A DNA stretch of 64,000 bases, from NCBI GenBank assembly GCA_045660365.1, contig JAZRDQ010000008.1, positions 72,506 to 136,505 of the forward strand. The letters run 5' to 3'. The translations under genes were made by a program, and so were the position numbers. The notes under the pieces are model-generated. The model did not search any database. It was given only the letters and a program-made list of their open reading frames with translations, and was not told the origin of the DNA. Below, piece by piece: positions 3,074 to 47,809 of this stretch (positions are counted from its first letter, which is position 1; each line of letters starts with the position of its first letter). The stretch comes from Bacteroidaceae bacterium (lineage in GTDB: Bacteria > Bacteroidota > Bacteroidia > Bacteroidales > Bacteroidaceae).

Positions 3074-3074
3074 T

Positions 3075-6134: not shown

Positions 6135-6142
6135 CAAACTTA
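6135..6142 (-). promoter_or_regulatory. Candidate Bacteroidetes -7 promoter element (TAAGTTTG on the minus strand) for the flippase operon
   Basis: Plus-strand CAAACTTA is an exact TAnnTTTG on the minus strand, about 20 nt upstream of the ATG at 6115. I found no clean -33 TTTG. Confidence 0.3.
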
Positions 6143-6390
6143 CAAAATAATTGGTTAATAATAGCTGTCTGTTGCATTAAATAGGTTGCACTTCTTGGCG
6201 CTATGTCCTAATTGCAGTAAAATTATTTAACAGCTACCGGTTGTAAGTGTTTTTGTAAAAAAAAATAATAGGCATTAAGGTGTTTTTTAATTGATTTTTT
6301 TGCCTAACTTCGTAGCCTTGTTTTACGCATATGCGCATATATGCGCGAGATAGACGAAAGTTGATGTTAAGAAACAAATAGGTAATTAAC

Positions 6391-9845: not shown

Positions 9846-9877
9846 ACCCCAAAAGTTAGACAAAAAACTTTTGGGGT
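9846..9877 (+). terminator. Perfect 12-bp stem-loop directly after paralog 1 (partial terminator or RNA-stability element)
   Basis: ACCCCAAAAGTT (9846-9857) pairs perfectly with AACTTTTGGGGT (9866-9877) across an 8-nt loop. It starts 1 nt after the TGA stop and has no U-tract. Confidence 0.5.
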
Positions 9878-9911
9878 CAGATCAATTAAAGTGCCTTAAA
9901 TAAAAAACAAT

Positions 9912-10892: not shown

Positions 10893-10933
10893 AAAGTAAA
10901 ACCGTAACATATATATAATAAGGAGAAACAATT

Positions 10934-11935: not shown

Positions 11936-11950
11936 AAAAAAAGACAAGAT

Positions 11951-12997: not shown

Positions 12998-13024
12998 AAT
13001 AATAATCCTGTAATAGATAAAACT

Positions 13025-14134: not shown

Positions 14135-14169
14135 TAAGTTTAAATTGCGAATAAATAAAACAGAAAAAT

Positions 14170-15192: not shown

Positions 15193-15363
15193 TTGCAAAG
15201 AGACTTATAGTACAAGCATTTTACAGAAGAATGCAGAAAGAATATTGATGTTGATTTTGGATGGACTTATGCCGATGAGGTTAGTAAATGACTAATTAAT
15301 TCGTAAAGTCAAGCCAGAAGGCATCAGAAGTCAGTGTAATAAAAAAGTATAAAAGTAAAAGAG

Positions 15364-16470
15364 ATGAATAGGATGTGCAATAGATATTTTAGACTAATAG
15401 TGTTGTTTACAACAATGCTATTGGTGGTGTCGTGTACATTGGATAAACCGGAACCACTGGACAGAAAGGAGAGTATGTCATTCCAGCCGGTAGTAAATAT
15501 GTCACGTACATCGAAAGCAATAATCCAGGGCACAGAATATCCGGCAGCTGAAAGTTTCTTTGTTAGCGCATACTATTATACTAACAATGCCGATGCTCAG
15601 CCACATACAACCTATATCAATAAAAATGAAGTAACCAGAAACGGAACAGTGTGGAGTACCACTACAGATTACTACTGGCCATTGTCGGGCTATATGGATT
15701 TTGTAGCATATTCACCAGGCAGCGTAAATGCTGAAATTGATAAAGATGGAGTAAGTATCCGGAACTTTGGATATGTAATTGATACTCCGGAAAAGACAAG
15801 GGTGGATTTCATGTACTATAAAACAGATGAAAAAGTTTCCTGTGCAACACATCCATCTGCTGTAGGTGTTACATTTAAACATGCGCTTACTCAGGTTGCA
15901 TTCAAAGTGGAACCACAAGCGTATTACACAACAACGGCTGCTGACGGCACAACAAACCAGGTTACCATAACAGTAGATAAGATATCGTTGAAGAACATCT
16001 ATTTTAAAGGTAGCTTTAATCAGAACGCAACCCCTCAGTGGGATGTTTACGATGAAGAGGATCAAAAGATCTATCATGATGCATGTCTGACAAACTACGC
16101 TTTATTGAACAAGGATTCAGGCCATGGAACTGAATTAAAGTATGATGGAGAAAATCCAAAGAGTGTTCCTATTATGCTGGACCAGAACACAGAACTTGCA
16201 GCACTGCTGATTCCGCAAACGTTGAATCAGAATGCAGCGCTCGATGTAACATACTCTGTTACTCAAAAAACAACAAAAGGCGATAAAGTAATAGTAGAAC
16301 CATATACTATCACTTTCAATAACTCAATTCTCATTCAGGGTAATCCACAACAGGTACTTCAGATGGGAAAGAAACTGGTATATAATATTCGTATTGGCCT
16401 TGACGCTATATCACTGGAAGCAACATACGGTGACTGGTCGGGCAACGAAGAGAATGTTGAACCACAATAA
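15364..16470 (+). CDS. Fimbrillin-like lipoprotein, paralog 7 (first gene after a 171-nt gap)
   Basis: Lipobox VVSC. Blocks: MSFQPV..TSKA, YYWPLSGYMDFVAYSP, DFMYY, FKHALTQVAF, LIPQ, LVYNIRIGLDAISLEATYGDW. Confidence 0.65.
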   Translation: MNRMCNRYFRLIVLFTTMLLVVSCTLDKPEPLDRKESMSFQPVVNMSRTSKAIIQGTEYPAAESFFVSAYYYTNNADAQPHTTYINKNEVTRNGTVWSTTTDYYWPLSGYMDFVAYSPGSVNAEIDKDGVSIRNFGYVIDTPEKTRVDFMYYKTDEKVSCATHPSAVGVTFKHALTQVAFKVEPQAYYTTTAADGTTNQVTITVDKISLKNIYFKGSFNQNATPQWDVYDEEDQKIYHDACLTNYALLNKDSGHGTELKYDGENPKSVPIMLDQNTELAALLIPQTLNQNAALDVTYSVTQKTTKGDKVIVEPYTITFNNSILIQGNPQQVLQMGKKLVYNIRIGLDAISLEATYGDWSGNEENVEPQ

Positions 16471-16475
16471 TTGGT

Positions 16476-17534
16476 ATGAGAAGATTTAGATACATATATA
16501 ATTGTACTTTGTTATTGGCAGTATCTCTGTTAATGGCATTGTCAGTATCGTGCAGTCGGGAAGATATAGACTTTTCGGAGAAGATTCCTATATCATTCAC
16601 AAGTAGTGTGGATAATTCAACAAAGGCATTGATAAGTGATGTTGCGGGTATTCAAACTACTGGATTTGGAGTAACTGCATATATAAATCAGAACAGTTCA
16701 TGGTTACCGGTAATGAATAACCAGAAGGTAGTTTATTCTGGTGGTAAGTGGGGATATTCTCCAGTATCATACTGGTCAAAAAATGATAGCTACACTTTTG
16801 CAGCTTATGCTCCTTATGGTTCTGCAACAGTTAATCTTAGTGTAGCAACAATGACGTTTGCTGATGTTCCCCGCTATCAGAATGTAATGACAGATGCAGA
16901 AAAAGCTAATGCAAAAGATATATTGACCGATGTAAAGAGTGGTTCATACAACAGCGAATTCAGAAATGGTGAAGTGCAGTTTGAACTGAAACATGAACTT
17001 GCTTATCTGGAAATCCGTGCAGTTAAGGCAGATATTGCAAGCATGAGAGATGTTACGTTTAAAGTAGCATCCCTTACATTGGGCGATGCACAGGATAAAA
17101 TGGCATCAACTGGTAACTGCACTTTTGTTAAAGGTATTCTGGATAATAATAAAACTACCTGGGGTACTACATCTTATACAGGCGATGGTAAATATACAAT
17201 AATAGGCTCTCTTTTGGATACCCCAATTCCAAATGAAGTTGATAAAAATCCATTGGTTTTATCACAAATGCTTATAGCCCCATTTGAATTTGGTGGAACT
17301 GAGGTTTCTCATAGTCTGCCATTCAATATTAGGTATAATAAGAATGATGGTAAAAATACTCCTTCAAACCACGATATTAAAGGTCATGCTATTACAATTA
17401 AAAAGTTTGAAGCGGGTAAAAAATATATAGTAACACTCAGATTCAACACAGCATCCAAGGTTGAAATAAATACAGTGGTGGTAGAGGACTGGACTGCAGG
17501 CACAACTTACGAACCTCCTGTATTTAACTGGTAA
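16476..17534 (+). CDS. Fimbrillin-like lipoprotein, paralog 8 (divergent)
   Basis: Lipobox SVSC. Blocks: ISFTS..STKA, SYWSKNDSYTFAAYAPY, FELKHELAYLEI, KYIVTLRF...VVVEDW. Confidence 0.6.
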   Translation: MRRFRYIYNCTLLLAVSLLMALSVSCSREDIDFSEKIPISFTSSVDNSTKALISDVAGIQTTGFGVTAYINQNSSWLPVMNNQKVVYSGGKWGYSPVSYWSKNDSYTFAAYAPYGSATVNLSVATMTFADVPRYQNVMTDAEKANAKDILTDVKSGSYNSEFRNGEVQFELKHELAYLEIRAVKADIASMRDVTFKVASLTLGDAQDKMASTGNCTFVKGILDNNKTTWGTTSYTGDGKYTIIGSLLDTPIPNEVDKNPLVLSQMLIAPFEFGGTEVSHSLPFNIRYNKNDGKNTPSNHDIKGHAITIKKFEAGKKYIVTLRFNTASKVEINTVVVEDWTAGTTYEPPVFNW

Positions 17535-17547
17535 AATAGGATAGATA

Positions 17548-18597
17548 ATGAACAGATATATTGACAAAATATTCGGAAAGTGGTTACTACTAGCGCTGTT
17601 TATGGTGCTGGCAGTGGGCTGTGCACAGGAATTCGATGAATGGGATAATGGTGTAAAGATAGAGTTTACTACACCTCATCTGCAGGATTTACAGGTAGAG
17701 ACCAGAGCAGTTTCAGGATATAGTGGAACCATATCCGGTAGTTCAAGCATGGGTGTTTTTGTTAGGGGAATTGTGAATGAAAGTACCATTACTTACAATG
17801 GCAGCAGCTGGGAATCGTCACTTAAACTGGATCCTGCTACATATAATATCTATTCATACATACCAAAGCGTAGCGGTGTGTCATTTAATGCAACAGGCAG
17901 CTACCCTGTAATCACTTTTACAGACGTACCATTTATAACAGATCAGGAGATACTTATCTCTTCCGGTGCAGTAGCAGAAACAGTTACATCAGATGGCGGT
18001 GTTTTTACTCCAAACGACATAACTGGCAGCTTATCTAAAAACAGTTATTCAATACGGGTAGAATCGAAAGAGAACTCCAGGAACTATGTAACCTTTATGA
18101 TGGACAGGGTTATGGCAAAGGTAATCCTGAACTTTAAAGTTCACAGCAAGTATGATGCAATCAGAACTGTAAAGATTAAGAAGGTAACATTGCAGCCAAC
18201 CAGTATTGTTGATATAGCATGTACATTAACCGATAAGGAGATAACATATCAGGGAAGTTCCACACAGTCAGCAACCTTATCTCCATTGGTGTATGACCAT
18301 AGTGGATTTGAGGTAGAAACTGATGCTGATGATGCAAATCCATTTGCAACATTCTATAGTGTACCTGGTGTTGAAAGTACAGTTAAGATGACAGTGGTTT
18401 ATGATGTTTATGATAAGTCGGGTACTTTGATTCGTGCCGATCAGGAGGTTACCAATGCATCAATCAAACTAATAGAATCGGGTACGTTACAGCGTGCCAA
18501 AGAGTATAAACTGAATATAAATATTGTGCCAACATATCTCTATTCTTTAAGCGATACAGATAAGGAAAGTGTTATGTTGATACAGTACAGTAATTAA
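17548..18597 (+). CDS. Fimbrillin-like lipoprotein, paralog 9 (most divergent; possible adaptor or tip-type subunit)
   Basis: Lipobox AVGC. Blocks: IEFTT...ETRA, MDRVMAKVILNF, EYKLNINIVP. It lacks the YYWP block and the terminal EIxFxPxVxDW strand. Confidence 0.5.
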   Translation: MNRYIDKIFGKWLLLALFMVLAVGCAQEFDEWDNGVKIEFTTPHLQDLQVETRAVSGYSGTISGSSSMGVFVRGIVNESTITYNGSSWESSLKLDPATYNIYSYIPKRSGVSFNATGSYPVITFTDVPFITDQEILISSGAVAETVTSDGGVFTPNDITGSLSKNSYSIRVESKENSRNYVTFMMDRVMAKVILNFKVHSKYDAIRTVKIKKVTLQPTSIVDIACTLTDKEITYQGSSTQSATLSPLVYDHSGFEVETDADDANPFATFYSVPGVESTVKMTVVYDVYDKSGTLIRADQEVTNASIKLIESGTLQRAKEYKLNINIVPTYLYSLSDTDKESVMLIQYSN

Positions 18598-18610: not shown

Positions 18611-21600
18611 ATGAATATATCCACAAATAGAAAACAGAAAACTTTGTTGGCAAGGGTACTCCGTCCACTCCTGCTTACACTGTCTGTTGTATGCAGCATG
18701 CCATTGCAGGCGCTCGTAATTAAAGGTGATGTGTATGGTGGCGGAAAGGAAGGTATGGTAGGTGTAGAAGGTACTCCTGCTCAGACCGATGTGGATATTA
18801 ATAGTGGAGAAGTTCGCACAGTATTTGGTGGCGGACAGGACGGAAAAGTGTATGGAACTACATCTGTAGATGTAACTGGTGGAACTATTGGTGCAGAAAA
18901 GTTTAATGGTTCCTTATATGGAGGTGTATATGGTGGTGGCGAAGGTGCTGAAGCTACAGTATTTGGTACTGCAAATGTAAATATGACAGCTGGCACTGTT
19001 GTGAATAATATATATGGCGGTGGTAAGATGGCTGCTTTACAGGGTAATACCAATGTTAAGATTTCTGGCGGTACAGTATCAGGATCTGTGTTTGGTGGTG
19101 CATGTATGGCAGATATTCAGGGCAGAACATACGTATGGATTAATGGTGGTGCTGATGCACTGAACATCGGCGCTGTTTATGGCGGTAACGATATATCTGG
19201 TAATGTATCATCCTATCTTTCAGTTGTGACCAACCCATATACTATACCTGTTGCAGCTATAGCAAATGATGACAACTGGAAAAACTGGAATGCCTTTGTA
19301 AGGGTAACCAAAGGGGCAGGAGAAGTAAATATAGGTTCATTGTATGGCGGCGGTAATGGTGATTATGGTTATGTTGGCACTGAAGGTAACTATTCCATTA
19401 CCTTGAAGGATTTTGCTCCGAATGGCACTGAAACAACAAGAATTCTTACAGTATCAAACAGACCAACATTGGGCAGAGTGCTTGTAGATGTTACAGGTGG
19501 AACATTCAATGCTATATATGGTGGCGGTAATAATGCAACAGTAACATTTTCTACCGATATATATCTTAATGGTGCAAATCTGACTGCAACAAATGTATTT
19601 GGTGGTAACAATAAGGCTGTAATGGCTATTCGCCCTACATGGCACCTGCATGATGCTACTATCACAAACCTCTATTCCGGAGGTAACCGTGGTGATATGA
19701 CCAGCCCGTCAGGTTTGTTACTTGCCATAGAGAGTGCATATCTGACCATAGAAAATGTGTATGGTGGTTGCCGTATGGCAAACGTATCTCCAACTGCTAC
19801 TCCAGGTGCAGAAACATATACAGCAACTGGCGGTAAATCTATCAGCTTCGATGGTGGATATGCAGCCCGCGTCTATATAGGTGGCGGTAAGGTTAAGAAC
19901 GTTTATGGTGGTAATGATATATCCGGTAAGGTGAATTATGGTGCAAACGTAGAGATATACAGTTCAATATCCGGCAGTATATATGGTGCGGGTAATGGTG
20001 CTTATCTTTATACTGACAACCCGGCCAATTCTTCATCTGATTTGTATTATATAAAAGGTGGAAATTCAGTTGCAGCACTATATGATTATCGTCCTCAGGT
20101 GGAAAAGACACTGTTGCATATTGCAGGTCCGGTAAATGATGATGGCACTCCAACTGAAAATCCGTTATATGTAGCAGGAAATGTGTTCTGTGGTGGTAAC
20201 TCAGCTCCACTAAAATCGGATGATACAAACGCAACCACTCAGTTCCGTATAGGTAAGAATGTTGTCATCAATGGTGTCTTCTTAGGTAGTAATGGAGAAC
20301 AGATGGTAGATCCTGAAGTTCTTAAATACTATGCTGATAATGCAAACTCTTCTATTGATTTGACTGATTCAGACCAGATGAAAGGTTATATGGATGGTGT
20401 ATCTGTCAACCTTAAACCATCTTTCTCCGTAGATTGGAAAGAGGAATTAACTCCGGACCAGACAGGAACATATATCGGTTCGCTCTATTTAGGCGGTAAT
20501 GTTGGTAGTTTAACTGCAACAGAGCAGATAGATGTAACTATTCCATCTTCAATCACCATTTATGAAAAGATAGTAGGTGGATCCAACAATGCTATTGTTG
20601 CTGCGAATAGTGGAATTAATGCGGAATATGTAGGTGGTGTAACAGAAACATCTTCTGGTGACTACAAACTGAAGATGACTGTTGCCAGCAGAATGGAACC
20701 TAAAACTCTGAATGCAACACTGGATGGTGAAGGTTATGTAACATCAGCATCGCTTGTCTGGAAAAAGTCAGCACCATCTGGTCTGGCGGAAGAAATTATT
20801 TCTGGTGCTAACATTTATGGTGGTTGTTATCAGAGTGGTGTAGTGAATGGTAATGTAATAATTGATGTAACTGATAATCTTATATCACAGAATATTATCT
20901 CTAAAAATCTCCATAAATATAATAGTGGTAGTACTGCGATAGGTGAATATGTATTTACCAATGCTATTTCTGTATTTGGTGGCGGTTATGGTGCAAACTC
21001 TACTATTAATGGTAACACTACCATCAACCTGAAAGAAAATGCTCAGGTGCTGAAGGTATTTGGAGGTGGTGAATTAGGTGCTGTAACAGGTAATACTTCT
21101 ATTAATCTGGATAAGAACCTGAAACAGCCTGCGGAAGGATTTTATAATGCATTTAAGGTGTATGGTGGTGGCTTGCAGGGTAATGTAGGCGGAACAGCAT
21201 CTGTTAATGTGCAGGGCGGTAAGTTCTTCGATGTATTCGGTGGCAGCTGTTTTGCTGATATTACCGGAACAGCAAAGGTTGTTATTGGTTCAGCAGAATC
21301 AGTGGGCAGCCAGACCCCATTGCTTATTGCTAACAACGTGTATGGAGCTAACGACTTTGGTGGAACAATTGGCGGTTCTGTAAGTTTTGGTCAATTAGCT
21401 TATGGTGGTAAATATGTGATGGCTCAGACAATGGTTCAGTACATATCGGGCGTTATTAATGGTAATATCTTTGGTGGCGCTAATGGTGCTTACGATTACG
21501 CATGGCAGTTCAGTAAAATCAATATGGAGGGAAAATATCCATTGTTGAATAAAGAGATAACTGAAAATAATGCATCATTTATAACCTCTAACACATTTGT

Positions 21601-24600
21601 TCATATAGCATCGCCTTCTACAAAAACAGATCAGATAAAAGGTGCTGTATATGGTGGCGGACAGGGATTCAGTGGTGCAACCGGTATAGTTGATGTAAAA
21701 GATACATACGTTCATCTGGCTGCTACAGGTACATATCAGGATCGTGTAACAAATGGTGCTGGCCCTTTGGTAAATAAGGTGTTTGGCGGAGCATACTATT
21801 CATACGTAGAGAAAACAACGGTTGATGCTGCAAGCGGATACTACAATGAGATATATGGAGGTACATTCGGCGCTACTCACAATGGCCTGCCAGTTGGTAT
21901 ATCCTATGACTGCGGAACTACAAATGTGAACATTTATGGTATGAATAATGCCAGTCTGAATGTTTATGGTGCAGGTGCAAAATCGGGTGCAACAACTACC
22001 AATGTTAAACTGTATGCGGGTAATATAGGTTATGCATACGGCGGATCTTTTGCTGAAGGTTATTGTGGTACAACAAATGTAACTATACCTGCAGGTTCTA
22101 CCATTACCGCAAAAGCTGTCTATGGAGGAAGTGTGGGCTCTGATGCTGGTTTGCCTTGTGATGTTGGACAATCTAATCTGACATTTGCATCAAATACTGC
22201 CTATATAACAGGCGAAGGCCTGTTTGGAGGTAACAAGAGCTATCGTGCTACACATAAAACCAATGTCAATATAACATCTCCTGTTCAGATAATGGCAGGT
22301 GAATATGCAAATGTATATGGTTCCGGACACGGTGAAAACACCATTACAGGTTTTGCAAAGGTTACACTATCAGATGGCGCACAGGTGGCTAATGTATATG
22401 GTGGCGCACTGGATGGTACTGTAAGATATGCATACGATGATAAATCGGGTGCACCAACATATTATGCAACTAATTTTGCTAAGTATGCGCACTGGGAATA
22501 TGAAGATCCTAAAACCGAATTGGAAAACAGAAATACCCGTATTATAATAGAAGAAGGTGCTACCGTTCAGGAGAATGTATTTGGCGGTGGCTATGGTGCT
22601 ACTGCTACGGTACATGGAGCAACAAGTGTAAGCCTTTTAGGAGGTATAGTAGAGGGCGATATTTATGGTGGTGGCTCTATGGGTAACATGGAACTGCTTG
22701 ACAAAGATAATGATGCAGGTAATAATATTCTCTCTATACTGGAAATATATGGTGGTAAGGTACGCCGAGTATTTGGTGGTGGCTTAGAAGGATATATAGA
22801 AGGTGAAACAGATGTACAGATAGGATTGCGCCAACAGGTTGAAGGCGGTAAGATTACCGACAAGGTGTATGCTTTGAATTCTAATAATTTAGTTGAAGCA
22901 GATATCGATTGGGGAAAACCTGCAGTTCTTCGTTCAGCGTATGGTGGTGGTGAACGCGGTAAAGTAACCAATACCAATATTACCATGAATAACGGTTATG
23001 TAGGTTACGATTACGATTATAAAACAGAAAAATATTTTCCGAACGTAAAACTACACAGTCAGGACGATCTGAATCTGCTTGCCAATAATGGTAACCTTTA
23101 TGGTGGTGGCTTTGGTGACGAGGCCTGGACAGTGAACACTCAGGTAACAATGTATGGTGGAAAAATCCGTCACTCACTTTATGGTGGTGGTGAAATAGCT
23201 TCGGTAGGTTTTGCCCCTATGAAGGTAGATGACGGAGTAGTTAAAGAGGTAGATTGGACTAGAACTGGAGAGATTACAGAAGGTAGTACTAAGGTAACAA
23301 TGTATGGCGGTACAGTAGAACGTGATGTATTTGGTGGTGGCCGTGGATTCAGTTATACACTGGCAGGTGCGTTAGAGGTTGAAAACGTATTCTATTCAAG
23401 TGGTTTTGTGTTTGGTAAGACCGAGGTCTATCTGCATCGCGGAACAGTTGGAACCGATGAAACTCTTAAAGACGAAGCAGGAAACGTATTTGGTGGCGGT
23501 AATATTGGTTATGTCTATTCTGTTAAGGGTAAAAAGAATGGTTACTCTCAGCAATTTACCACAGGACACTATTATGATAGAGAAGGAAAATATACAGAAG
23601 ACTGTAAGGTTCTTATCACTCCGGTAACAGTAGCTTTGGAGGATATAACAATAGGATCCAAATCATATAAAGCAGGCGATTTTGTTCCATGTTCCGATTT
23701 GAATACGCTCTATGCTAACGACTCAAGATGGAAGCAGATGGATGAACAGGGTGTTACAGTACGTAATGCAGTCTTTGCCGGTGGTAATGTAATTCAGGGT
23801 ACCGATATTATGACTGCCGATGTAAAGACCGTATTTGGTAATGTAACAGCATCAGTAGTGGATGTATTTGATTGCGATATGGTATCTGTAAGTACCGATA
23901 ATATCGGTGGTTTCTATGGAGATGGTAACTTAAGTCTTGTAGATGGTTACAGAGAACTGAATATAACTAACTATGGCACTGACTATCATAATCTTACACA
24001 TGAAATTACATACGATGATTACCAGAAAATGCATGCAAGAAAGAAAGCATATTATGAACTGAAATATCTATGTCTGGAAGCTCATGATTATAAAGATAAG
24101 AACAATAAAACACACTACTATGTAGAGGGTGATCAGATATCCGGTTCTGTATGGGGCAGCATGCCTGCAGAAGAACAGGCAAAGTGGAAACTTGCAGGTC
24201 TGGCAACACTATACGCAGGCAGAATGATTAACACCATACAGCGTGCCGATTTCTGTGGTGTTGTGGGTAGCAGAGTGGTGTTAAAGGGTGCACGTGATCG
24301 TGAAACAACTACTGCCGACTTTACCATGTACACCATTAACCGTCTGGATGAACTTTCACTGAATGAAGTTAAAACATATCCTATAGCCGGTTATAACCCT
24401 GATGGAACAAAAGACCATGGTTGTTACTTTGGTATATACAATGTGGTGAACTATTTAGGAGCAGTATCTTCCAACCTTAATTATTATACTGATGTTCGTA
24501 AAACACACAGTACAGAAGATATTTATAAGCCAGATCCAGAGAACCAGGATGAAACTTATTATGAATATAAGATGCGTCAGGCAGGAACAAAATTCCGTAA

Positions 24601-27600
24601 TAATGGTGAAAGTTCAAATATAATTGCACTTGCAGGTGGTGTATGGCTTGAAGTTGTAAGATCAATAAATGAACAGACAGGCAAAAAGGATTATGGACCT
24701 ATTACAGGTGTTATCCAGCTTGATCTTATAAATGTAGCACCTGGCGAGGGTGGTGGATATGTGTATGCCAAGAATATCCACGGAAAAAGAACACCTTCCG
24801 GTGAAGTGAACGTTACATTGGCCGAATCCAACAAAGATGCGGTATCGTACAAACTACATAAATATTCAGATGATCAGACTGAGCCATATGCATCATCCGG
24901 TAACTTTGTACATAGCCAGAAGCAGATTGTAGATGATTGCTATCCAAATAACGGCGATAAGAGTTCGCCTGCACACTATTGGTATGTACGTGGCGATTTC
25001 TACGTATATAACCAGACAATCTCTGCATATACCGGTACACCGCAGGCATATTCAGAGGATGTATCAATTCCTTTAACTATCACAGCAGGTGCAAATGGCA
25101 GACTGGAATTACTTGATATCTCCAAAAACTACTATGCATACTATACCGGATTGAATTATGGAGGCAGAGAACTGACTGCAGACGATTCTGTAAGAATTGG
25201 CGGACAGTATTACCATACCAACGATCCTATCAGCAGCTGGGATTATGAAAGACTTGCTACTCCTGAACAGGCCTTCTTTGTAGAGGAGACTTACGTATGT
25301 ATAGACGATGTGGTAAATATTGATGGGGAAGCAAAAGATTCTGAAGGCAGAGATCTGGGTGCGCTTGCGCTTGCATACAGGAAAGGCGATGTAATACTTC
25401 CGGCTAAGTTACAGGAACTGAAGGATTCAACTGTCAGGATTAAGATTCATGATCCGAATGCAAATACTGCCGATGCAACCCAGCTGGTTCCAGTATCCTA
25501 TTTCTTCCATCCAACAAACAATATGAGTAAGGATGAAGGATTCCTGCTTACATTCAAAATTAATAACCCTGCAGTATGGAATGATTACTATACACAGGCA
25601 TCGGGTGCTCCAAACCAGATTAGCTTAGCAACATATAATGATGGTAAAACCAATAAGGAACTATATGTGTCAGGTCCGTCGTTCTTGAATACAACAGGTG
25701 GTATATATGGACAATATACATATAATGCCGGCGATATTATAGATGATGAAGTATATAATGAACAGCAGAATTTGCTGAAGGATGCTACGGATAAGGGAGT
25801 GGCATCTCCAACCGGACAGGCTGTATTTGAAATAGCATACGTGGCAACAGAAAATGTACATGTTAATACCTCCAATGGCAATGGTGGTGAAACAGATATG
25901 TATATTACTGAAGGTAACGTAATTTCAAAAACAGATTATGATAGAGCCAGCAATGAAAAGATACGAAGGCATTTTGAAAAGGCAGTATTGTGTACACAAA
26001 CATTCGAATTTGCTCCGGAAGAGTGGTACTATTATGGTGATATATTGCAGCAGTCTGAATTTGATAAGCTGAATGCATCTGATAAAAAGAATTTCTCTGT
26101 CAATACATGGCTCTGTACCGCTACAGGTAATTTTGGTGGTCACCTGTTTATAGTGCAGAACAGTTATGATGCACTGCAATATGCGGGAGTCCAGCCGGAT
26201 GAGCGTAAGAATTTCTCTTTTAATAAAGATGCTCTGGATTTGTTGAGTACCAATTTCTCAAAAGATCTGCATGGATACGATCCGTCTGCAAATTATGATC
26301 CTAATACAGAAAACGATGGCTATCGTTACAGCAATCCTACAAGAGTTGATTATACAGCGGTTTATAATGGTACAGGTCTGGGTGTTTCCGGTCTGGGAAT
26401 ATCAGATATAGATGGCAACCCATTGGAAGTAATCAGTAAAGGCACAAAACTGAACAATGTGAATTATGAAAAGCTTCCGAATGAGAAGATGAACTTTGCT
26501 CTGGTAAATGTAACCGATGAACATCTGCGTGTTGATAACAATGCAGAGCCACCTAAAGCAAAGAATACATTCTATGTGGTTAAGAAGACATTTAAGGTTG
26601 GCGATGTTTATTATGCAAGGGGCAGAGTGCTTACCGACACAGAATTTACTAAATTACCGGTTGATGATAATGTGAGGAATAATAATGTAATGCATTATAC
26701 ATTCAATTCACAAGGAACTTATTATGTATGTCTGAATGATTTCAGCAACCAGCAGAAACTAATAAAGATTAATCCTGAGAGTGATGGTTCATATAATAGT
26801 GCAAACAATAATAATAAAGCTGATGTTGCTGCAGGAACCATAAAAGAAGGAACTGTTATTACAACCACTTCGTACGCAGAGAACGTAGTGAATATGCAGA
26901 CTAACTTCTCTGTTCAGGGAACTATGCCTACAGAAACATCAACGCTGTATGTTCCAAGAAGTGCCGATGTAAGAGACCTGTCGGAAGATAAGATAGTAAC
27001 AGTTGTATATAAGTATTCTTATCTGGAGAGCGATCTGGCAGGTAACAACTTTGAAGAGATAGTAGAACGTCATATTGTAAATATCAGGGTACACTTTGAG
27101 AGTGGTGTGCCTAAGATTGGCGATCTGCAGACTCCTCAGACAGTATTGCCTGGCGAAGTACTTGGTATGAACACACCTCCTGTAACACCTGGTGCTTACG
27201 AAATTATGGGTGGTGGATTTGAGATCTTTGCTAACGAACAGGATGCATTTGCTCATAAGAATGGTGTTGCATATCAGCAGGGACGTGCTCCACTATACTG
27301 GTATCAGAATGAATACTGGATAGCATACTATGCAAAGACATACTTAGGTAAAACTTATTCAAATCCGGTAAGATTATCCGTTGCCAACTATCATAGACTG
27401 AAAGATGTACTTGAACATCCGGAATATATGTATGTGGATTCTATAACTGATACATATTCAAATAAACCTGCAATGTTGCGTAATCCAAAGATTTACATAA
27501 ATAATGATGTGTTTACAGCAAAAGTAGGTGATGAGGAGAAACAATTTAATGAGTTTGACTACCTGATTAAGTTGTATAATGAACATTTGCATATTGGAAA

Positions 27601-30016
27601 AGATTATGTGCCAGATCCAAATAATAAGCCTGACAGGTATATAAATGGTCAGATACAGTATGCCAAGAATCTGGAATTTATATTGCAGAGTGATGTGGAA
27701 CCATTATACTATAAAGATAAAGACTGGACACTTGGCGGTGATGGTGATAACTGTTTCCAGGGTAATCTGCATGGTGATGGTTACACCATAAGTGGTTTGA
27801 CCCACTCATTGTTCAATAAGCTATGCGGTAATGTATATAACTTAGGTGTTACCGGTTCATTTACAGGTGCAGGTATATCAGACAACGGAGGTGCAGTATA
27901 TAACAGTTGGATTTCAACAACCGGAATTACAACTACTGCTCCGATAATTGCAGATGGTGGCTCTGCTGTCAATTCATATTACAACAGCATACAGTACACT
28001 GGTAGTTATGCTAATGGTGCTACAGCAGCCACAACACGTGAATTTACTGATGGTACAGTAGCCTATAACCTGAATGGATACTATCAGCAGAAGCGCAATG
28101 ATATATCGGCAGGTAAAAAGCGTGATGGTTCCGATGGAGCATATCTGCAGAATAATGGTCTGTCTGTATTACCATCATTGCAGAGTATTGCAGCTACTGC
28201 CACATCAGCTAAGTATGGAAATTCGGATTATGTGGAAGAGCGTATGAAAAGTGGTGATTTCCGTTACGAAAAGGGTGAAGTTCCATACCGTGTAGGCGAA
28301 ATCAGATTTATAGAGGGTAATCCTGATCAGGGCACTGCTGCGAAATTTGTACCTCTGTATCCGGATGATTATATCTTCTTTGGACAGAACCTAACATACG
28401 GTTTAAGTCAGAGTAAAGACCATGATAACCTGCCTGACAGAGTTGCAAAGCGTACCTATAACTATTCAAGGACTGTAGAAGATGTAACTACAAACTATCA
28501 GCCGGAACTGATAGATGCAACAACAGTTGCCGATAACCGTGTATTCCGTGTTCCGGTTTATACAACGCAATCTCCAACAGCAGTAGCAGGTGGTGTTCAC
28601 TACAACAGAGATGCTGTATTTACAGATACCTATAACGCAATTGTTATGGACAGAGATGTAACAGCAATTGACTTTACAGGTAATGCGAGTGCAAGTGACG
28701 CATTGTTTGAAAACAGCCTGCTGGATATGCCTGAGCTACGCAGCTTCTACCTGAAGGGTCTTACAAAGAACCTGTTGGTATATGCTGAAGCAGGAGGAGA
28801 GGCAACTTATAAACTGCTTGACGAAGCTGCTAAGGAACCTGAACTTGATATTCAGCAGAATAACTATAATTCTGTTGACAGAATTGTACAGGAGCCTATG
28901 TTCCATCTGGTAGGTAAACAGATTAATGGAGAATACAGAGCAACATCTGACCACTTTATTGTGGATAAACAGAACTTTGCAGCACCAATATCATATAGCT
29001 TTAATGATAACTACTATATGTGGTATCAGCGCGACCCAGCTTACCATGCCAATAGTAGTTCAGATGGCTGGGAAGGTTTGATTCTTCCATTTACTGCCGA
29101 TCTGGTGACTACACAGGACAAGGGTGAAATAACTCACTTCTATGGAGATTCTGATAAGGGGCATGAGTATTGGCTGCGTGGCTTTACAGGAATATCAGAT
29201 GCTAAAGCACAGTTTGCCCGTCCACAGGAAGGTGCTGGCTATGCAAAGTATGAAGATCATAATGGAAATAATCCATATAGAGTGAGCAATAGTTATCTGT
29301 ATGACACATATTACAGTAAGAACAGCAGAAACGATAAAAACAGTGATAAATACTTTGAGTATTACAATGGTACACGTGAATATTCAGATTACCTGCTGAC
29401 TACTCAGAATATGCCATATATTGTGGCTTATCCTGGTGTGGCATACTATGAATTTGATATGTCAGGTAAATTTGTTCCAGGGAATACTGCAACACCTGCT
29501 CCGGAAGAACTGGATAAGCAGATAGTAACCTATGTCTCTGTAGCTAATCAGGTAATTCCTGTATATAATGCGTCAGGTCTGGTAACATCTGCAGGTGGAT
29601 ATACATTGTATGGTTCTTATCTGAATACCGACATTGCAGATGCAGATTACAAAGTTGATGCAACAGGTGCCGGATTTGAACGTGTGCAGAATTCCGATGT
29701 GGCTGTACCATTCCGTGTATATCTGAAGAAGAACGGATCTGCAGCACCAACCAGAGGAAATGTTCTTGATTATATTCCAATAAGTGGCAGTGAAGATTAT
29801 ATAGCAGAACAGGCACCATTGAAGGGATTGAATATCTATGGCAGGAACAATGTAATATACATAGAATCTGCTCTTGACTATGAAACTATGGTTACAATAT
29901 ATTCAACATCGGGACAGATTATTGCAAGAGTGAAGGTGGCTCCGGGAACTACGGTAAAAGTGCCTGTTAATGCAAATGGAGTATATATTGCAAATAGACA
30001 GAAGATAGTTATATAA
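18611..30016 (+). CDS. Giant (3801 aa) secreted GG-repeat (predicted parallel beta-helix) surface protein with a T9SS-type C-terminal sorting domain
   Basis: One uninterrupted 11.4-kb ORF starting 13 nt after paralog 9, with a Sec signal (LLLTLSVVCSMPLQA). Dozens of V[YF]GGG-centred repeats run from about nt 18725 to about 23930. A non-repetitive central region follows. Near 27751-27960 there is a GLUG-like stretch (FQGNLHGDGYTISGL...NLGVTGSF). The last about 70 aa (LNIYGRNNVIYIES...VTIYSTSGQIIARVKVAPGTTVKVPVNANGVYIANRQKIVI) look like a type A T9SS CTD. Confidence 0.8.
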   Translation: MNISTNRKQKTLLARVLRPLLLTLSVVCSMPLQALVIKGDVYGGGKEGMVGVEGTPAQTDVDINSGEVRTVFGGGQDGKVYGTTSVDVTGGTIGAEKFNGSLYGGVYGGGEGAEATVFGTANVNMTAGTVVNNIYGGGKMAALQGNTNVKISGGTVSGSVFGGACMADIQGRTYVWINGGADALNIGAVYGGNDISGNVSSYLSVVTNPYTIPVAAIANDDNWKNWNAFVRVTKGAGEVNIGSLYGGGNGDYGYVGTEGNYSITLKDFAPNGTETTRILTVSNRPTLGRVLVDVTGGTFNAIYGGGNNATVTFSTDIYLNGANLTATNVFGGNNKAVMAIRPTWHLHDATITNLYSGGNRGDMTSPSGLLLAIESAYLTIENVYGGCRMANVSPTATPGAETYTATGGKSISFDGGYAARVYIGGGKVKNVYGGNDISGKVNYGANVEIYSSISGSIYGAGNGAYLYTDNPANSSSDLYYIKGGNSVAALYDYRPQVEKTLLHIAGPVNDDGTPTENPLYVAGNVFCGGNSAPLKSDDTNATTQFRIGKNVVINGVFLGSNGEQMVDPEVLKYYADNANSSIDLTDSDQMKGYMDGVSVNLKPSFSVDWKEELTPDQTGTYIGSLYLGGNVGSLTATEQIDVTIPSSITIYEKIVGGSNNAIVAANSGINAEYVGGVTETSSGDYKLKMTVASRMEPKTLNATLDGEGYVTSASLVWKKSAPSGLAEEIISGANIYGGCYQSGVVNGNVIIDVTDNLISQNIISKNLHKYNSGSTAIGEYVFTNAISVFGGGYGANSTINGNTTINLKENAQVLKVFGGGELGAVTGNTSINLDKNLKQPAEGFYNAFKVYGGGLQGNVGGTASVNVQGGKFFDVFGGSCFADITGTAKVVIGSAESVGSQTPLLIANNVYGANDFGGTIGGSVSFGQLAYGGKYVMAQTMVQYISGVINGNIFGGANGAYDYAWQFSKINMEGKYPLLNKEITENNASFITSNTFVHIASPSTKTDQIKGAVYGGGQGFSGATGIVDVKDTYVHLAATGTYQDRVTNGAGPLVNKVFGGAYYSYVEKTTVDAASGYYNEIYGGTFGATHNGLPVGISYDCGTTNVNIYGMNNASLNVYGAGAKSGATTTNVKLYAGNIGYAYGGSFAEGYCGTTNVTIPAGSTITAKAVYGGSVGSDAGLPCDVGQSNLTFASNTAYITGEGLFGGNKSYRATHKTNVNITSPVQIMAGEYANVYGSGHGENTITGFAKVTLSDGAQVANVYGGALDGTVRYAYDDKSGAPTYYATNFAKYAHWEYEDPKTELENRNTRIIIEEGATVQENVFGGGYGATATVHGATSVSLLGGIVEGDIYGGGSMGNMELLDKDNDAGNNILSILEIYGGKVRRVFGGGLEGYIEGETDVQIGLRQQVEGGKITDKVYALNSNNLVEADIDWGKPAVLRSAYGGGERGKVTNTNITMNNGYVGYDYDYKTEKYFPNVKLHSQDDLNLLANNGNLYGGGFGDEAWTVNTQVTMYGGKIRHSLYGGGEIASVGFAPMKVDDGVVKEVDWTRTGEITEGSTKVTMYGGTVERDVFGGGRGFSYTLAGALEVENVFYSSGFVFGKTEVYLHRGTVGTDETLKDEAGNVFGGGNIGYVYSVKGKKNGYSQQFTTGHYYDREGKYTEDCKVLITPVTVALEDITIGSKSYKAGDFVPCSDLNTLYANDSRWKQMDEQGVTVRNAVFAGGNVIQGTDIMTADVKTVFGNVTASVVDVFDCDMVSVSTDNIGGFYGDGNLSLVDGYRELNITNYGTDYHNLTHEITYDDYQKMHARKKAYYELKYLCLEAHDYKDKNNKTHYYVEGDQISGSVWGSMPAEEQAKWKLAGLATLYAGRMINTIQRADFCGVVGSRVVLKGARDRETTTADFTMYTINRLDELSLNEVKTYPIAGYNPDGTKDHGCYFGIYNVVNYLGAVSSNLNYYTDVRKTHSTEDIYKPDPENQDETYYEYKMRQAGTKFRNNGESSNIIALAGGVWLEVVRSINEQTGKKDYGPITGVIQLDLINVAPGEGGGYVYAKNIHGKRTPSGEVNVTLAESNKDAVSYKLHKYSDDQTEPYASSGNFVHSQKQIVDDCYPNNGDKSSPAHYWYVRGDFYVYNQTISAYTGTPQAYSEDVSIPLTITAGANGRLELLDISKNYYAYYTGLNYGGRELTADDSVRIGGQYYHTNDPISSWDYERLATPEQAFFVEETYVCIDDVVNIDGEAKDSEGRDLGALALAYRKGDVILPAKLQELKDSTVRIKIHDPNANTADATQLVPVSYFFHPTNNMSKDEGFLLTFKINNPAVWNDYYTQASGAPNQISLATYNDGKTNKELYVSGPSFLNTTGGIYGQYTYNAGDIIDDEVYNEQQNLLKDATDKGVASPTGQAVFEIAYVATENVHVNTSNGNGGETDMYITEGNVISKTDYDRASNEKIRRHFEKAVLCTQTFEFAPEEWYYYGDILQQSEFDKLNASDKKNFSVNTWLCTATGNFGGHLFIVQNSYDALQYAGVQPDERKNFSFNKDALDLLSTNFSKDLHGYDPSANYDPNTENDGYRYSNPTRVDYTAVYNGTGLGVSGLGISDIDGNPLEVISKGTKLNNVNYEKLPNEKMNFALVNVTDEHLRVDNNAEPPKAKNTFYVVKKTFKVGDVYYARGRVLTDTEFTKLPVDDNVRNNNVMHYTFNSQGTYYVCLNDFSNQQKLIKINPESDGSYNSANNNNKADVAAGTIKEGTVITTTSYAENVVNMQTNFSVQGTMPTETSTLYVPRSADVRDLSEDKIVTVVYKYSYLESDLAGNNFEEIVERHIVNIRVHFESGVPKIGDLQTPQTVLPGEVLGMNTPPVTPGAYEIMGGGFEIFANEQDAFAHKNGVAYQQGRAPLYWYQNEYWIAYYAKTYLGKTYSNPVRLSVANYHRLKDVLEHPEYMYVDSITDTYSNKPAMLRNPKIYINNDVFTAKVGDEEKQFNEFDYLIKLYNEHLHIGKDYVPDPNNKPDRYINGQIQYAKNLEFILQSDVEPLYYKDKDWTLGGDGDNCFQGNLHGDGYTISGLTHSLFNKLCGNVYNLGVTGSFTGAGISDNGGAVYNSWISTTGITTTAPIIADGGSAVNSYYNSIQYTGSYANGATAATTREFTDGTVAYNLNGYYQQKRNDISAGKKRDGSDGAYLQNNGLSVLPSLQSIAATATSAKYGNSDYVEERMKSGDFRYEKGEVPYRVGEIRFIEGNPDQGTAAKFVPLYPDDYIFFGQNLTYGLSQSKDHDNLPDRVAKRTYNYSRTVEDVTTNYQPELIDATTVADNRVFRVPVYTTQSPTAVAGGVHYNRDAVFTDTYNAIVMDRDVTAIDFTGNASASDALFENSLLDMPELRSFYLKGLTKNLLVYAEAGGEATYKLLDEAAKEPELDIQQNNYNSVDRIVQEPMFHLVGKQINGEYRATSDHFIVDKQNFAAPISYSFNDNYYMWYQRDPAYHANSSSDGWEGLILPFTADLVTTQDKGEITHFYGDSDKGHEYWLRGFTGISDAKAQFARPQEGAGYAKYEDHNGNNPYRVSNSYLYDTYYSKNSRNDKNSDKYFEYYNGTREYSDYLLTTQNMPYIVAYPGVAYYEFDMSGKFVPGNTATPAPEELDKQIVTYVSVANQVIPVYNASGLVTSAGGYTLYGSYLNTDIADADYKVDATGAGFERVQNSDVAVPFRVYLKKNGSAAPTRGNVLDYIPISGSEDYIAEQAPLKGLNIYGRNNVIYIESALDYETMVTIYSTSGQIIARVKVAPGTTVKVPVNANGVYIANRQKIVI

Positions 30017-30040: not shown

Positions 30041-30081
30041 AAAAATCCTCGGTTCACTTCATAATGGACCGAGGTTTTTTT
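30041..30081. terminator. Bidirectional intrinsic terminator between the convergent giant gene and the GT2-Stealth gene
   Basis: CCTCGGT (30047-30053) pairs with ACCGAGG (30068-30074). An A-run lies upstream and a T7 run downstream (30075-30081). Confidence 0.65.
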
Positions 30082-31870
30082 ACTTTTCAAAACAGCTTTT
30101 GTTAGGGAAACAGGATTGGAGAAATTCTACCATTCTCCTGCGGTCGCTGTCGGTAGTGCCTTCACCATCGTTCATACATACCATCAGAGGCTTGTATTTC
30201 TTTAGAACATAATTGTAATCTTTTGTGTTGACAGGAATACAGCGTGAATAGGATGAGGCCTTTTTCATAATAGCTCTGCCAGTGGCTATCATATAGTATC
30301 CTATGTAGCTTCTGTGCATATCGGAGTCGTTACGGAAACGGCTGTACGATGTTTTGCTCCATTCCTGTGTATGGCAACTGGCTATACACTCCCTGATAAT
30401 GCTTTTAGAGTACAGGTCAAAACAGTGGTGTGGCGCATACTGAATCTTCTTTCCATATTCTTCTGCAATAAGATTCTGCATTCTGTCAATTTTTATGGCG
30501 TAATTACCTTTACGCTTTGCCTTACGTTTGTTGAAACGGTGGCTGTTCAGACGGACAACAGGACGTCCGTCTTCAGAAAAGAGATCTTCTGCCCCTAAGT
30601 TTCCTGTAAAAAACATATCATCATTTCCCAGAAAGAAATATTCACTCAGTTCATCTATGTTGCAGGTGCTGTTCTCTATTGCTGTGGAATTGAAGGTGGG
30701 CAGAGCATCGGCCGGCAGTATCTGATTGTGATTGACCAGAACAACTTTTGGGTGTGTGGTATCAAGCCATTCAGGACACTGACCATCTGTTACTATAAAT
30801 ATGCGGTTAATCCATGGGGCAAATTTTTCGATGGAACGGAGTGAATACTTCAGTTCATCGTTCTCTATCCATCGTGCCTCAATGGTTCCCTGATTTTTAG
30901 TTGCACTGCCTAAGTATCTGTCACGTTTGGCCTGCCATGCGGGGTCATTGCCATCTACCCACATATAGACTATATCTACGGGAGTGGTTATCCTGCTTTT
31001 TGCAGGGGCTTTCCAGAAATATAGCGGTATGGCGTCAAAAAGCCGCAGGGTGCGCCTGTTATTCTTCTCTTTTATCTTCCACAGACAGATGCCACAAACG
31101 GTGTTATGGCTTACTGTGATATTTCTCTCTTTATTGGGTATAGTCAATCCGTTTGCTGATGCGTAGTCAACCATCGATTTATGTGCCTGATACTTCTGTA
31201 GCTGTTTGGAGCGGGTCTGTTTTGATTTTACCGTAGAACTGCTGTTCAGTACATATCTGTAGAATAGATCCGGTACTGTAACCAGTCTGCCGCTTTCACA
31301 GATGGCGCGGAATACAAACATTACATCTTCATACTGAACTCCTTCAGCAAATCTAAGCCCTGTGCGTTCCAGCATCTCTCTGCGATACAGTTTATTTACC
31401 GGATGAAATTCAGGTGGGCATTTGCAGATTTTCAGCTTATCATCAGTTGTAGTTATAACTTTGCTCTCCCTGAATTCAATGACTGTTCTGTTACCACCCG
31501 GTTTCTCCTTTATTATCCCGCAGATAGCTATATCGGCATTCGCTGTTTTTGCTGCGTTGTACAGGGTTTCAAAATAGTTGGCGGGGATATAGTCATCACT
31601 ATCTATCATTCCTATATATTCGCCACGTGCAATAGCCATTGCTGCATTTCTTGCTTTACCCTGACGGCCATTTTGCTGATGAATGACTGTTATGCGGCTG
31701 TCTCTCTTTGCCCACTCATCCAGAACCTGCGCCGAATGGTCTGTTGAACCATCGTTTACACATATTATCTCAGTGTCTGTAAGTGTCTGCTCTGTGACAC
31801 TCTGCAAACAGCGTGGCAAAAGTTCCGCTGTGTTATATACGGGGATTATTATGCTTACCTTTGCTGACAT
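30080..31870 (-). CDS. Bifunctional glycosyltransferase family 2 / Stealth-family (hexose-1-phosphate transferase-like) fusion protein
   Basis: 596 aa. The N-terminus is GT2-like (VSIIIPVYNTAELLPRCLQSV...ICVNDGSTDHS). The C-terminal half carries Stealth CR1 (VDIVYMWVDGNDPAW), CR2 (NDELKYSLRSIEKFAPWINRIFIVTDGQCPEWL...LPTFNSTAIE...LGNDDMFF), CR3 (YAPHHCFDLYSK) and CR4-like (MVCMNDG). Confidence 0.8.
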   Translation of the reverse strand: MSAKVSIIIPVYNTAELLPRCLQSVTEQTLTDTEIICVNDGSTDHSAQVLDEWAKRDSRITVIHQQNGRQGKARNAAMAIARGEYIGMIDSDDYIPANYFETLYNAAKTANADIAICGIIKEKPGGNRTVIEFRESKVITTTDDKLKICKCPPEFHPVNKLYRREMLERTGLRFAEGVQYEDVMFVFRAICESGRLVTVPDLFYRYVLNSSSTVKSKQTRSKQLQKYQAHKSMVDYASANGLTIPNKERNITVSHNTVCGICLWKIKEKNNRRTLRLFDAIPLYFWKAPAKSRITTPVDIVYMWVDGNDPAWQAKRDRYLGSATKNQGTIEARWIENDELKYSLRSIEKFAPWINRIFIVTDGQCPEWLDTTHPKVVLVNHNQILPADALPTFNSTAIENSTCNIDELSEYFFLGNDDMFFTGNLGAEDLFSEDGRPVVRLNSHRFNKRKAKRKGNYAIKIDRMQNLIAEEYGKKIQYAPHHCFDLYSKSIIRECIASCHTQEWSKTSYSRFRNDSDMHRSYIGYYMIATGRAIMKKASSYSRCIPVNTKDYNYVLKKYKPLMVCMNDGEGTTDSDRRRMVEFLQSCFPNKSCFEK

Positions 31871-46229: not shown

Positions 46230-46262
46230 CCTGTTAAAATCAACGGAAATACATTTTGTATG

Positions 46263-47779: not shown

Positions 47780-47809
47780 GCGGAGTATTTTGTATTGAAT
47801 GAATTTATA

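Follow-up and report, generated by a model that had tools for sequence, protein, structure and literature searches.

The question raised by this locus is what a protein of 3801 amino acids (aa), encoded by the last gene of an operon resembling those for type V pili, might do for its host, and by which route it could reach the cell surface. The gene, here called the giant gene, lies in a 64,000-nucleotide (nt) stretch of DNA (the window) from the Bacteroidaceae bacterium assembly GCA_045660365.1 (contig JAZRDQ010000008.1, positions 72,506 to 136,505). Its product was found to be a member of an unnamed, previously undescribed and widely conserved family of rumen and gut Bacteroidales of the Prevotella type. 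The explanation that we favour, with moderate confidence, is that this family of proteins of about 3600-4350 aa consists of giant fibres or adhesins that are exported through a type IX secretion system (T9SS) and work together with a type V pilus. The coordinates of all features are collected in Table 1.

The giant gene is a single intact open reading frame (ORF) of 11.4 kb, as a first-pass annotation of the window had described it, beginning with ATG and running for 3801 codons without an internal stop. Only 13 nt separate it from the preceding gene, and the gene that follows (30080-31870) is on the opposite strand. The Sec signal claimed earlier was also recognised, judged by eye and not with a signal-peptide predictor: the N-terminus, MNISTNRKQKTLLARVLRPLLLTLSVVCSMPLQA followed after the probable cleavage point by LVIKG, combines a basic n-region with a hydrophobic core of about 14 residues and an AxA-like site (PLQA, then L). 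The context of Cys28 (SVVC) is not that of a canonical lipobox. An exact-sequence look-up of the protein returned no matching record.

An ORF of this size could also be an assembly artefact or a decaying pseudogene, and two metagenomic loci that carry the gene as two overlapping ORFs might be taken to point that way. In locus L003 (10001-21863) the gene is split by a frameshift into overlapping ORFs of 1515 and 2457 aa, and in L004 (10001-21572) into ORFs of 1221 and 2648 aa. The junctions are differently placed and no homopolymer or slippery tract was found at either, so that phase variation is not suggested; the splits are probably sequencing errors or occasional decay (pseudogenes), and not programmed events. 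Against an artefact, 62 independent assemblies, two of them from cultured isolates, hold one intact ORF of the same architecture, and 509 positions are at least 95% conserved over the entire length of the protein. No DNA tandem repeats were detected inside the gene, except for a trivial one of 24 nt, and the collapse of repeats during assembly, which the first-pass annotation had raised as a danger to its own reading, therefore fails as an explanation. Because of the intact colinear homologues, the lack of collapsible tandem repeats and the conserved positions along the whole length, an assembly artefact is excluded and the ORF is genuine; this alternative retains a vanishing probability and is regarded as already refuted.

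Homologues were searched for with the giant protein divided into N-terminal, central, and C-terminal regions, which gave 633, 47, and 190 matches, respectively. None of these matches had a precomputed Pfam domain covering the matched region (four carried unrelated domains), and the fragments tiled colinearly over the full giant protein. No match in this regional protein-homologue database was longer than about 1730 aa, though genomes and a library of representative proteins hold many members of 3500-4700 aa, and full-length giant proteins seem to be absent from that database or fragmented in it, hiding their true architecture. When one genome per species was scanned, 358 related loci were recovered, 80 of which were analysed by ORF calling and BLAST. 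One intact ORF of 3605-4355 aa (median 3876) was present in 62 loci, with the same N-terminal, central, and C-terminal architecture; each of these full-length homologues came from a different species-level genome and was colinear from end to end. The sources are metagenome-assembled genomes from the rumen or hindgut of cattle, yak, buffalo, goat, sheep, and deer, along with two cultured isolates, Prevotella sp. tf2-5 (L062; giant gene within NZ_FOWK01000001.1:479827-503132, reverse strand) and tc2-28 (L069; NZ_FNRE01), and all related loci are labelled as Prevotella, Prevotellaceae, Alloprevotella, Bacteroidaceae, or Bacteroidales. The closest relative of the window protein (83% identity) is encoded by L005 (CALEFD010000019.1). 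In the colinear alignment of all 63 proteins, Gly accounts for 179 of the 509 highly conserved window positions, and Tyr, Asn, Pro, and Asp are frequent as well. The most variable segments of the family are aa 1-300, around 1000-1100, and 2200-2780, which are candidates for sites of ligand contact. No description of the family was found in the full-text literature on Mfa5, type V pili and fimbrillins, DUF3575, the T9SS, or the cargo of rumen Prevotella that carries T9SS C-terminal sorting domains (CTDs).

Export by the T9SS is suggested by the last ~77 residues, which are supported at the family level as a divergent type A sorting domain. Of 31 homologue C-termini, 29 had a match to TIGR04183, the model for type A, with E ≤ 0.01 (the lowest being 4e-8), and two homologues carry the NCBI name 'T9SS type A sorting domain-containing protein'. 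With a hidden Markov model (HMM) built from the family, the domain was located no more than 10 residues from the C-terminus in 62/62 full-length proteins. The CTD alignment has invariant G57, Y81, and K87 and near-invariant G79, I52, and P67, and the window copy reads ...VTIYSTSGQII...NGVYIANRQKIVI. Type A CTDs are characterised by motif B (a Gly in a hydrophobic/Tyr context), motif D (GxY and then Ile), and motif E (a basic residue) at the extreme C-terminus (PMC11969387). All three were present, as in the Prevotella intermedia CTDs of that study: B as G57 in ...IYSTSG, D as G79-x-Y81-I82, and E as K87. In the family, about 21 aa separate motif B from motif D, which fits the 'long CTD' class defined there.

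The structural predictions pointed in the same direction. AlphaFold2 (AF2) modelled the last ~80 residues as a beta-sandwich of seven strands, for which Foldseek retrieved the RemA CTD in its T9SS substrate complex (8gl6_D; TMt 0.55, probability 1.0, with an E-value of only 1.2e-2) and also DUF3244 Ig-like sandwiches. The CTD family profile matched RemA (E = 0.11) and HBP35 (E = 0.54) only weakly among PDB chains. Type A (TIGR04183) was the only CTD class retrieved by the NCBIfam scan, type B being absent, and with a specialised CTD HMM neither the window nor the analysed loci yielded a further CTD protein. Prevotella has an active T9SS, for which some 80 cargo proteins are predicted in P. intermedia (PMC11969387).

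The N-terminal part of the protein is built largely from short repeats centred on a pair of glycines (GG repeats), with the unit consensus hYGGGxxGxhxGxTxhxhxGGxhxxx. Between aa 41 and 1626 there are 37 copies of the strict motif [VILFAM][YFW]GG, against a mean of 1.4 ± 1.2 and a maximum of 6 in 2000 shuffled sequences. The first-pass annotation had thus been right in seeing dozens of repeats, but not in spacing them 20-25 aa apart: they most often recur after 28 aa, and the distance grows to 53-61 aa wherever a degenerate unit intervenes. By self-BLAST, no internal repeats were found beyond about aa 1800, and sequence-profile searches of PDB chains gave no relatives of either the N-terminal region or the repeat unit. 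An AF2 model of aa 1401-2600 had an overall pLDDT (predicted local distance difference test) of 63.8; within it the last GG repeats (aa 1401-1870) were all-beta, with short, regularly spaced strands mostly at pLDDT 75-95 and a few blocks of low confidence. The best Foldseek rows for this model were HpmA (4w8s) and a C-terminal domain annotated as an adhesin (4wa0), both insignificant (E = 0.35-1.5, probability <0.1). Among the Foldseek rows obtained with the AF2 models, those for alphavirus E2 and vault proteins were disregarded, with a root-mean-square deviation of >20 Å. The data are compatible with a beta-solenoid, in which case, at one coil per 28-aa unit and a rise of about 0.48 nm for each, the repeat region alone would be roughly 25-30 nm long.

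Beyond the repeats lies a central core that is among the most conserved stretches of the giant protein. An exhaustive HMM search with this core through 1.84 billion representative proteins recovered 233 clusters (at 50% identity). Most were proteins 3000-4700 aa long in which the core lies near position 1700-2800, and the remainder were shorter fragments; by this measure the core appears to be restricted to the giant family. It matched nothing in a PDB profile search, and Pfam scans of 33 central homologues gave nothing consistent. In the AF2 model, aa 1870-2170 reached a pLDDT of only 25-35 despite their high conservation and 54 aligned sequences, and aa 2180-2540 were modelled as small alpha/beta units. 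The most variable segment of the protein follows the core.

The C-terminal module, in contrast to the core, is not confined to giant proteins. Its 190 homologues are 33-42% identical across the full query, and locus L002, for example, encodes a protein of 1214 aa that aligns with aa 2570-3793 of the giant protein. After some stand-alone relatives of the module (~1200-1400 aa) come genes for giant CHB_HEX_C_1/Fn3_assoc proteins and for Peptidase_M26_N proteins of >2600 aa, and in several Prevotella loci a CHB_HEX_C_1/Fn3_assoc/Big_3 protein is encoded directly after the full giant gene (the stretches concerned are listed in Table 1). In L002, genes of a phage-like or mobile-element-like kind (VapE, DNA pol A, PDDEXK) adjoin the cluster. 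The AF2 model of aa 2800-3801 had a pLDDT of 72.8 and a predicted TM-score of 0.72, and Foldseek found no significant PDB fold match for the module outside the CTD.

Within the module is the stretch that the first-pass annotation had called GLUG-like. Its motif, CFxGxLHGDGYTISGL...NLGVTGSF, does lie where it had been placed and is invariant in homologues (C249, F250, H255, G256, and G258 in the numbering of the module alignment), but neither GLUG nor Peptidase_M26_N was matched by Pfam at E ≤ 10 on the tile covering it. As read from the alignments, 'GLUG-like' is a resemblance at the level of a motif, and not family membership. The same motif raises the alternative of a secreted enzyme or toxin, such as a beta-helix polysaccharide-degrading enzyme or a relative of M26-type proteases, in place of a structural fibre. 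The C-terminal profile gave one weak match among PDB chains, to the Bacteroides 'putative immunoglobulin A1 protease' 3n6z (E = 1e-3), exactly over CFxGxLHGDGYTISGL; relatives of the module adjoin Peptidase_M26_N and CHB_HEX_C_1 proteins; and there are invariant polar clusters, for example KGEITHFY...GHEYWLR and EFDxSG. However, the matched part of 3n6z is its non-catalytic N-terminal region, and the motif in common with the Peptidase_M26_N-bearing neighbour protein in L002 covers just 31 columns, with an hhalign probability of only 12%. Pfam, NCBIfam, PHROGs, and PDB profiles gave no enzyme family in any region or homologue, and HExxH is absent from the whole of the giant protein. An enzyme or toxin is, on this evidence, highly improbable.

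Pfam and NCBIfam scans of the whole giant protein and of eight tiles (E ≤ 10) gave nothing meaningful except a sub-threshold CTD, and PHROGs gave no match. Short rows for FabI and Glyco_hydro_3_C were rejected, being far below their cutoffs and not common to the homologues. Outside the CTD, the giant protein matches no known family. A fibre-like character is suggested because of the 37 GG repeats, the predominance of Gly, Tyr, Asn, and Pro among the conserved residues, the all-beta AF2 model, and the lack of any enzyme family or HExxH motif.

The genomic setting connects this putative fibre to a pilus. The first-pass annotation had put the giant gene in the 'Mfa5 position', and it is indeed the terminal gene of an operon resembling those for type V pili, with DUF3575, DUF5119/Mfa2-like, and fimbrillin-like genes upstream. 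DUF3575 opens the related operons wherever the flanking sequence extends far enough. Nine fimbrillin-like paralogues of about 330-370 aa (8835-18597) are encoded in the window, including a divergent one, FIM9, directly before the giant gene. They are mutually 21-39% identical and have lipoprotein signal peptides with a conserved Cys, and the first eight share an invariant TKA site. PF13149 (Mfa_like_1) was matched at about 1e-21 by three of the five paralogues tested (those starting at 8835, 15364, and 16476), whereas the copy at 13025 and FIM9 matched no Pfam family at all. The nine-paralogue array is kept gene for gene in the two closest relatives, L005 and L008. In more distant Prevotella loci, the stretch from DUF3575 to the FIM9 orthologue contains only 4-5 genes, which are larger and more divergent, most of them without a Pfam match.

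FIM9 proved to be the constant element of these operons. In 73/73 loci with upstream sequence, the immediate upstream neighbour of the giant gene is a FIM9 orthologue and not another paralogue, a pairing that strengthens the operon link proposed earlier; in about 60 loci the gap between the fimbrillin-like gene and the giant gene is -50 to +100 nt. Compared with the other fimbrillins of the window by hhalign, FIM9 gave a probability of 98.6% (E = 4.9e-16, 281 columns), its family profile matched the Bacteroides fragilis fimbrial protein BF1861 (PDB 3sy6, E = 1.5e-3), and PF13149 was matched by 10 of 40 orthologues. The lipobox Cys25 is invariant in the family, R53 is near-invariant in a TRA site that aligns with the invariant TKA of the paralogues, and the C-terminus has a conserved PTYLYxLSDxDLDNP. 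In type V pilins, this basic T[RK]A site is the point at which the N-terminal prosequence is cut, opening the groove for strand exchange. Judged by sequence, the FIM9 family are true fimbrillin homologues; identity among most of these partners is 21-37%.

Two alternatives to a partnership with a pilus have to be weighed here. In one, the fimbrillin-like lipoproteins would form a docking or chaperone platform in the outer membrane for the giant cargo, comparable to PorP/SprF, and not a pilus. The invariant adjacent partner gene, the few recognisable fimbrillins of Prevotella-type loci, and the DUF3575/OmpA-like outer-membrane proteins that open the operon would all fit such a platform. Against it, the lipobox and the basic T[RK]A site, which are typical of type V pilins that polymerise, are retained in FIM9 and the paralogues, and a gene for an Mfa2-like anchor is present. 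Moreover, PorP/SprF-type partners are beta-barrels that serve type B CTD proteins, such as SprB-like ones, whereas the giant CTD is of type A. A docking platform is therefore thought improbable.

The other alternative is a free-standing giant adhesin attached to lipopolysaccharide, of the RemA or gingipain type, which would be exported by the T9SS and merely co-regulated with the pilus genes, the fimbrillin-like neighbours forming a separate structure. Type A CTD cargo is normally cleaved and joined to a surface glycolipid (PMC11969387, PMC7835359), the giant protein has no pilin-like domain, and its C-terminal module also occurs in stand-alone cargo away from fimbrillin genes (L002), all of which would suit a free-standing protein. 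Co-regulation alone is nevertheless a poor explanation for a FIM9-like gene that adjoins the giant gene in every one of the 73 loci, with very short gaps and despite wide divergence, and Mfa5 provides a precedent for CTD cargo as a fimbrial component (PMC7835359). A free-standing adhesin is considered possible, but doubtful.

A giant protein working with the pilus thus remains the preferred reading, and a sequence of steps can be proposed for it. The protein would pass the inner membrane via Sec, using its N-terminal signal peptide, after which the beta-sandwich CTD would be recognised by the T9SS, the outer membrane crossed, and the CTD removed by a PorU-type sortase. The mature protein would be an elongated, glycine-rich, all-beta fibre, composed of a GG stalk of about 1650 aa, the conserved core, the variable segment, and the C-terminal module of about 1150 aa, and may serve in adhesion. 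It would be co-transcribed with the pilus set (DUF3575, the Mfa2-like anchor, and fimbrillins that take the lipoprotein route), and the FIM9-type pilin would, most probably, tether or adapt the giant protein to the pilus, the pilus base, or the cell surface. Because the protein carries a T9SS tag and always follows a pilus-subunit-like gene, two export pathways are probably joined in one surface fibre.

Several observations weigh against this reading. Gene adjacency does not prove a physical association with the pilus, and in Prevotella-type loci most of the upstream genes have no Pfam match. No pilin-like domain was detected in the giant protein with a fimbrillin HMM built from 227 locus proteins (≤2.5 bits), so that the usual strand exchange cannot be its way into a pilus. 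The CTD of the window copy scored 19.4-20.2 bits with TIGR04183 (E = 4e-4 to 8e-4), where the cutoff is 23, and did not match PF18962; the type A assignment of the first-pass annotation consequently holds for the family, but narrowly fails for this copy by the strict cutoff. No T9SS core genes (porK/L/M/N, sov, porU, porV) were present among the ORFs scanned in the 64-kb window. The beta-helix or solenoid suggested for the repeats in that annotation is compatible with the all-beta model but unconfirmed, as Foldseek found nothing with E <0.01 in the PDB and nothing among viral models. Lastly, the conserved core that was poorly modelled by AF2 could still conceal a catalytic domain.

Table 1. 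Coordinates of the giant gene, its operon, and related features (window positions, except for the last four rows, which give positions within other loci).
Feature	Position	Strand	Remarks
DUF3575 outer-membrane-like protein, first operon gene	6391..7710	+	PF12099 E = 4e-32
DUF5119/Mfa2-like lipoprotein, candidate pilus anchor	7722..8822	+	PF17145 2.6e-24, PF08842 (Mfa2) 1.3e-7
Eight fimbrillin-like lipoprotein paralogues	8835..17534	+	
Fimbrillin paralogues 1-4	8835-9845, 9912-10892, 10934-11935, 11951-12997	+	
Fimbrillin paralogues 5-8	13025-14134, 14170-15192, 15364-16470, 16476-17534	+	
FIM9, divergent fimbrillin-like lipoprotein	17548..18597	+	directly upstream of giant gene
Giant ORF	18611..30016	+	3801 aa + stop codon; ATG start; no internal stops
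Probable Sec signal peptide (signal peptidase I type), aa 1-35	18611..18715	+	sequence reading
GG-repeat region, aa 41-1650	18731..23560	+	~28-aa units; motif-poor insert at ~aa 460-735
Conserved central core, aa ~1700-2180	23708..25150	+	YAGRxMNTIQRADFCG...TINRxxExSLN...HGxYFGIY...GGGxVYAKNxH...PAHYW
Most variable segment, aa ~2200-2780	25208..26950	+	0.23-0.31 identity per 100-aa block vs 62 homologues
C-terminal module, aa ~2570-3724	26318..29782	+	also in stand-alone T9SS cargo proteins of 1000-1700 aa
CFxGxLHGDGYTISGL...NLGVTGSF motif, aa 3048-3084	27752..27862	+	CFQGNLHGDGYTISGL...NLGVTGSF; invariant in homologues
Putative type A T9SS C-terminal sorting domain (long-CTD type), aa ~3725-3801	29783..30013	+	
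Terminator-like hairpin (30047-30074) and T-run	30047..30084	+	starts 31 nt 3' of giant-gene stop; operon end
C-terminal-module relatives and neighbours, L002	1-23645		
C-terminal-module relatives and neighbours, L001	3289-17452		
C-terminal-module relatives and neighbours, L062	21982-23307		
C-terminal-module relatives and neighbours, L004	21569-23666		

Other features of the window are recorded here for completeness. The region upstream of DUF3575 and its first codons are flanked by a 22-nt inverted repeat (6142-6163 and 6431-6452; 82% complementary, 267 nt apart), the geometry of which resembles the invertible promoters that phase-vary surface structures of Bacteroidales, although the match is weak. 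A second type V pilus-like locus (43765-55110) comprises DUF3575 (46448-47779), DUF5119 (48109-49317), and four Mfa_like_1 genes (49343-55110), the last two encoding proteins of 509 and 624 aa; it is preceded by two opposite-strand genes for AraC-family regulators (43765-46265) and has no giant CTD gene. Convergent with the giant gene, on the minus strand (30080-33818), are genes for a GT2 glycosyltransferase fused to a Stealth (CR1/CR2/CR4) domain, a TupA-like ATP-grasp protein, and an octopine/nopaline-dehydrogenase-like protein, which together look like a small cluster for the modification of a surface polysaccharide or phosphoglycan.

Mfa5 is the only case in which the entry of a T9SS-exported protein into a type V pilus has been studied, and even there the route has yet to be settled (PMC7835359). 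The giant family provides an independent case that is far more widespread, with no fewer than 358 loci among species-representative genomes and 233 clusters (50% identity), and it offers both an identifiable, invariant partner pilin and two cultured isolates (Prevotella sp. tf2-5 and tc2-28). Each protein adds about 3700 conserved residues without Pfam, NCBIfam, or PDB coverage, and the hosts are dominant rumen bacteria, in an environment where surface attachment underlies the degradation of fibre. A bolder proposal, which is rather unlikely but deserves mention, is that the operon specifies a composite organelle, with a fimbrillin shaft (nine paralogues here), FIM9 as an adaptor pilin, and a T9SS fibre of ~3800 residues without a solved structural relative. 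If this were true, a coupling of T9SS cargo to pili that is independent of Mfa5 would be widespread in rumen and gut Prevotellaceae, and would probably be a major determinant of attachment to plant fibre, mucus, and other cells.

Similarities to known systems were found at several levels. With 3n6z and the Peptidase_M26_N/GLUG-motif proteins, the giant protein has in common the motif F-x-G-x-(L/F)-x-G-x-G-x-x-I-x-G-L...LF..L.G.V.N, and Peptidase_M26_N proteins adjoin relatives of its C-terminal module, but the resemblance goes no further than the motif, as the giant protein has neither a GLUG or M26_N match nor HExxH. Like the chlamydial Pmp proteins (GGA[ILV]/FxxN) and the haemagglutinins of two-partner secretion, it has glycine-centred repeats every 20-30 residues and would be a very long, all-beta, non-enzymatic surface protein, its fold being a prediction only. 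It differs from them in having no match to Pmp/POMP repeats (tiled Pfam and NCBIfam scans, E ≤ 10), no autotransporter barrel or two-partner-secretion domain, and a T9SS CTD at its end.

The SprB and RemA proteins of Flavobacteria are also very large, repetitive surface proteins that are exported by the T9SS via a C-terminal sorting domain, and the CTD model of the giant protein resembles the CTD of RemA. The giant protein has, however, no match to a type B CTD or to SprB repeats in Pfam and NCBIfam scans, the hosts of its family are non-gliding anaerobes, and its gene is part of a pilus operon and has no sprF/porP-type partner.

The closest parallel is Mfa5, the accessory tip protein of Mfa1 type V fimbriae and the only fimbrial protein of Porphyromonas gingivalis with a T9SS CTD, export of which stops when the T9SS is blocked, and which is not expected to enter the fimbria by strand exchange (PMC7835359). 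Both proteins are encoded by the last gene of a type V fimbrial operon, both have a Sec signal and a T9SS CTD but no lipoprotein signal, so that the giant protein, like Mfa5, would take a different export route from the pilins, and both are far larger than the pilins. The first-pass annotation had argued from the lack of a vWA/MIDAS motif that the giant protein is not a simple Mfa5 ortholog, and this was borne out: Pfam and NCBIfam scans of the whole protein and its tiles found no vWA/MIDAS domain, and no Mfa5 chain (structures 6tnj and 6to1; PMC7835359) was among the PDB-profile matches of the N-terminal, central, or C-terminal alignments. The giant protein also lacks the IgG-like domains of Mfa5 and any detectable sequence similarity to it, has a passenger more than three times longer, composed of GG repeats and family-specific regions, and is accompanied by a dedicated fimbrillin-like partner in every locus. 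It is best read as analogous to Mfa5, and not homologous, and would then represent, for a type V pilus operon, an accessory protein that depends on the T9SS and is unusually large, widespread, and structurally uncharted.

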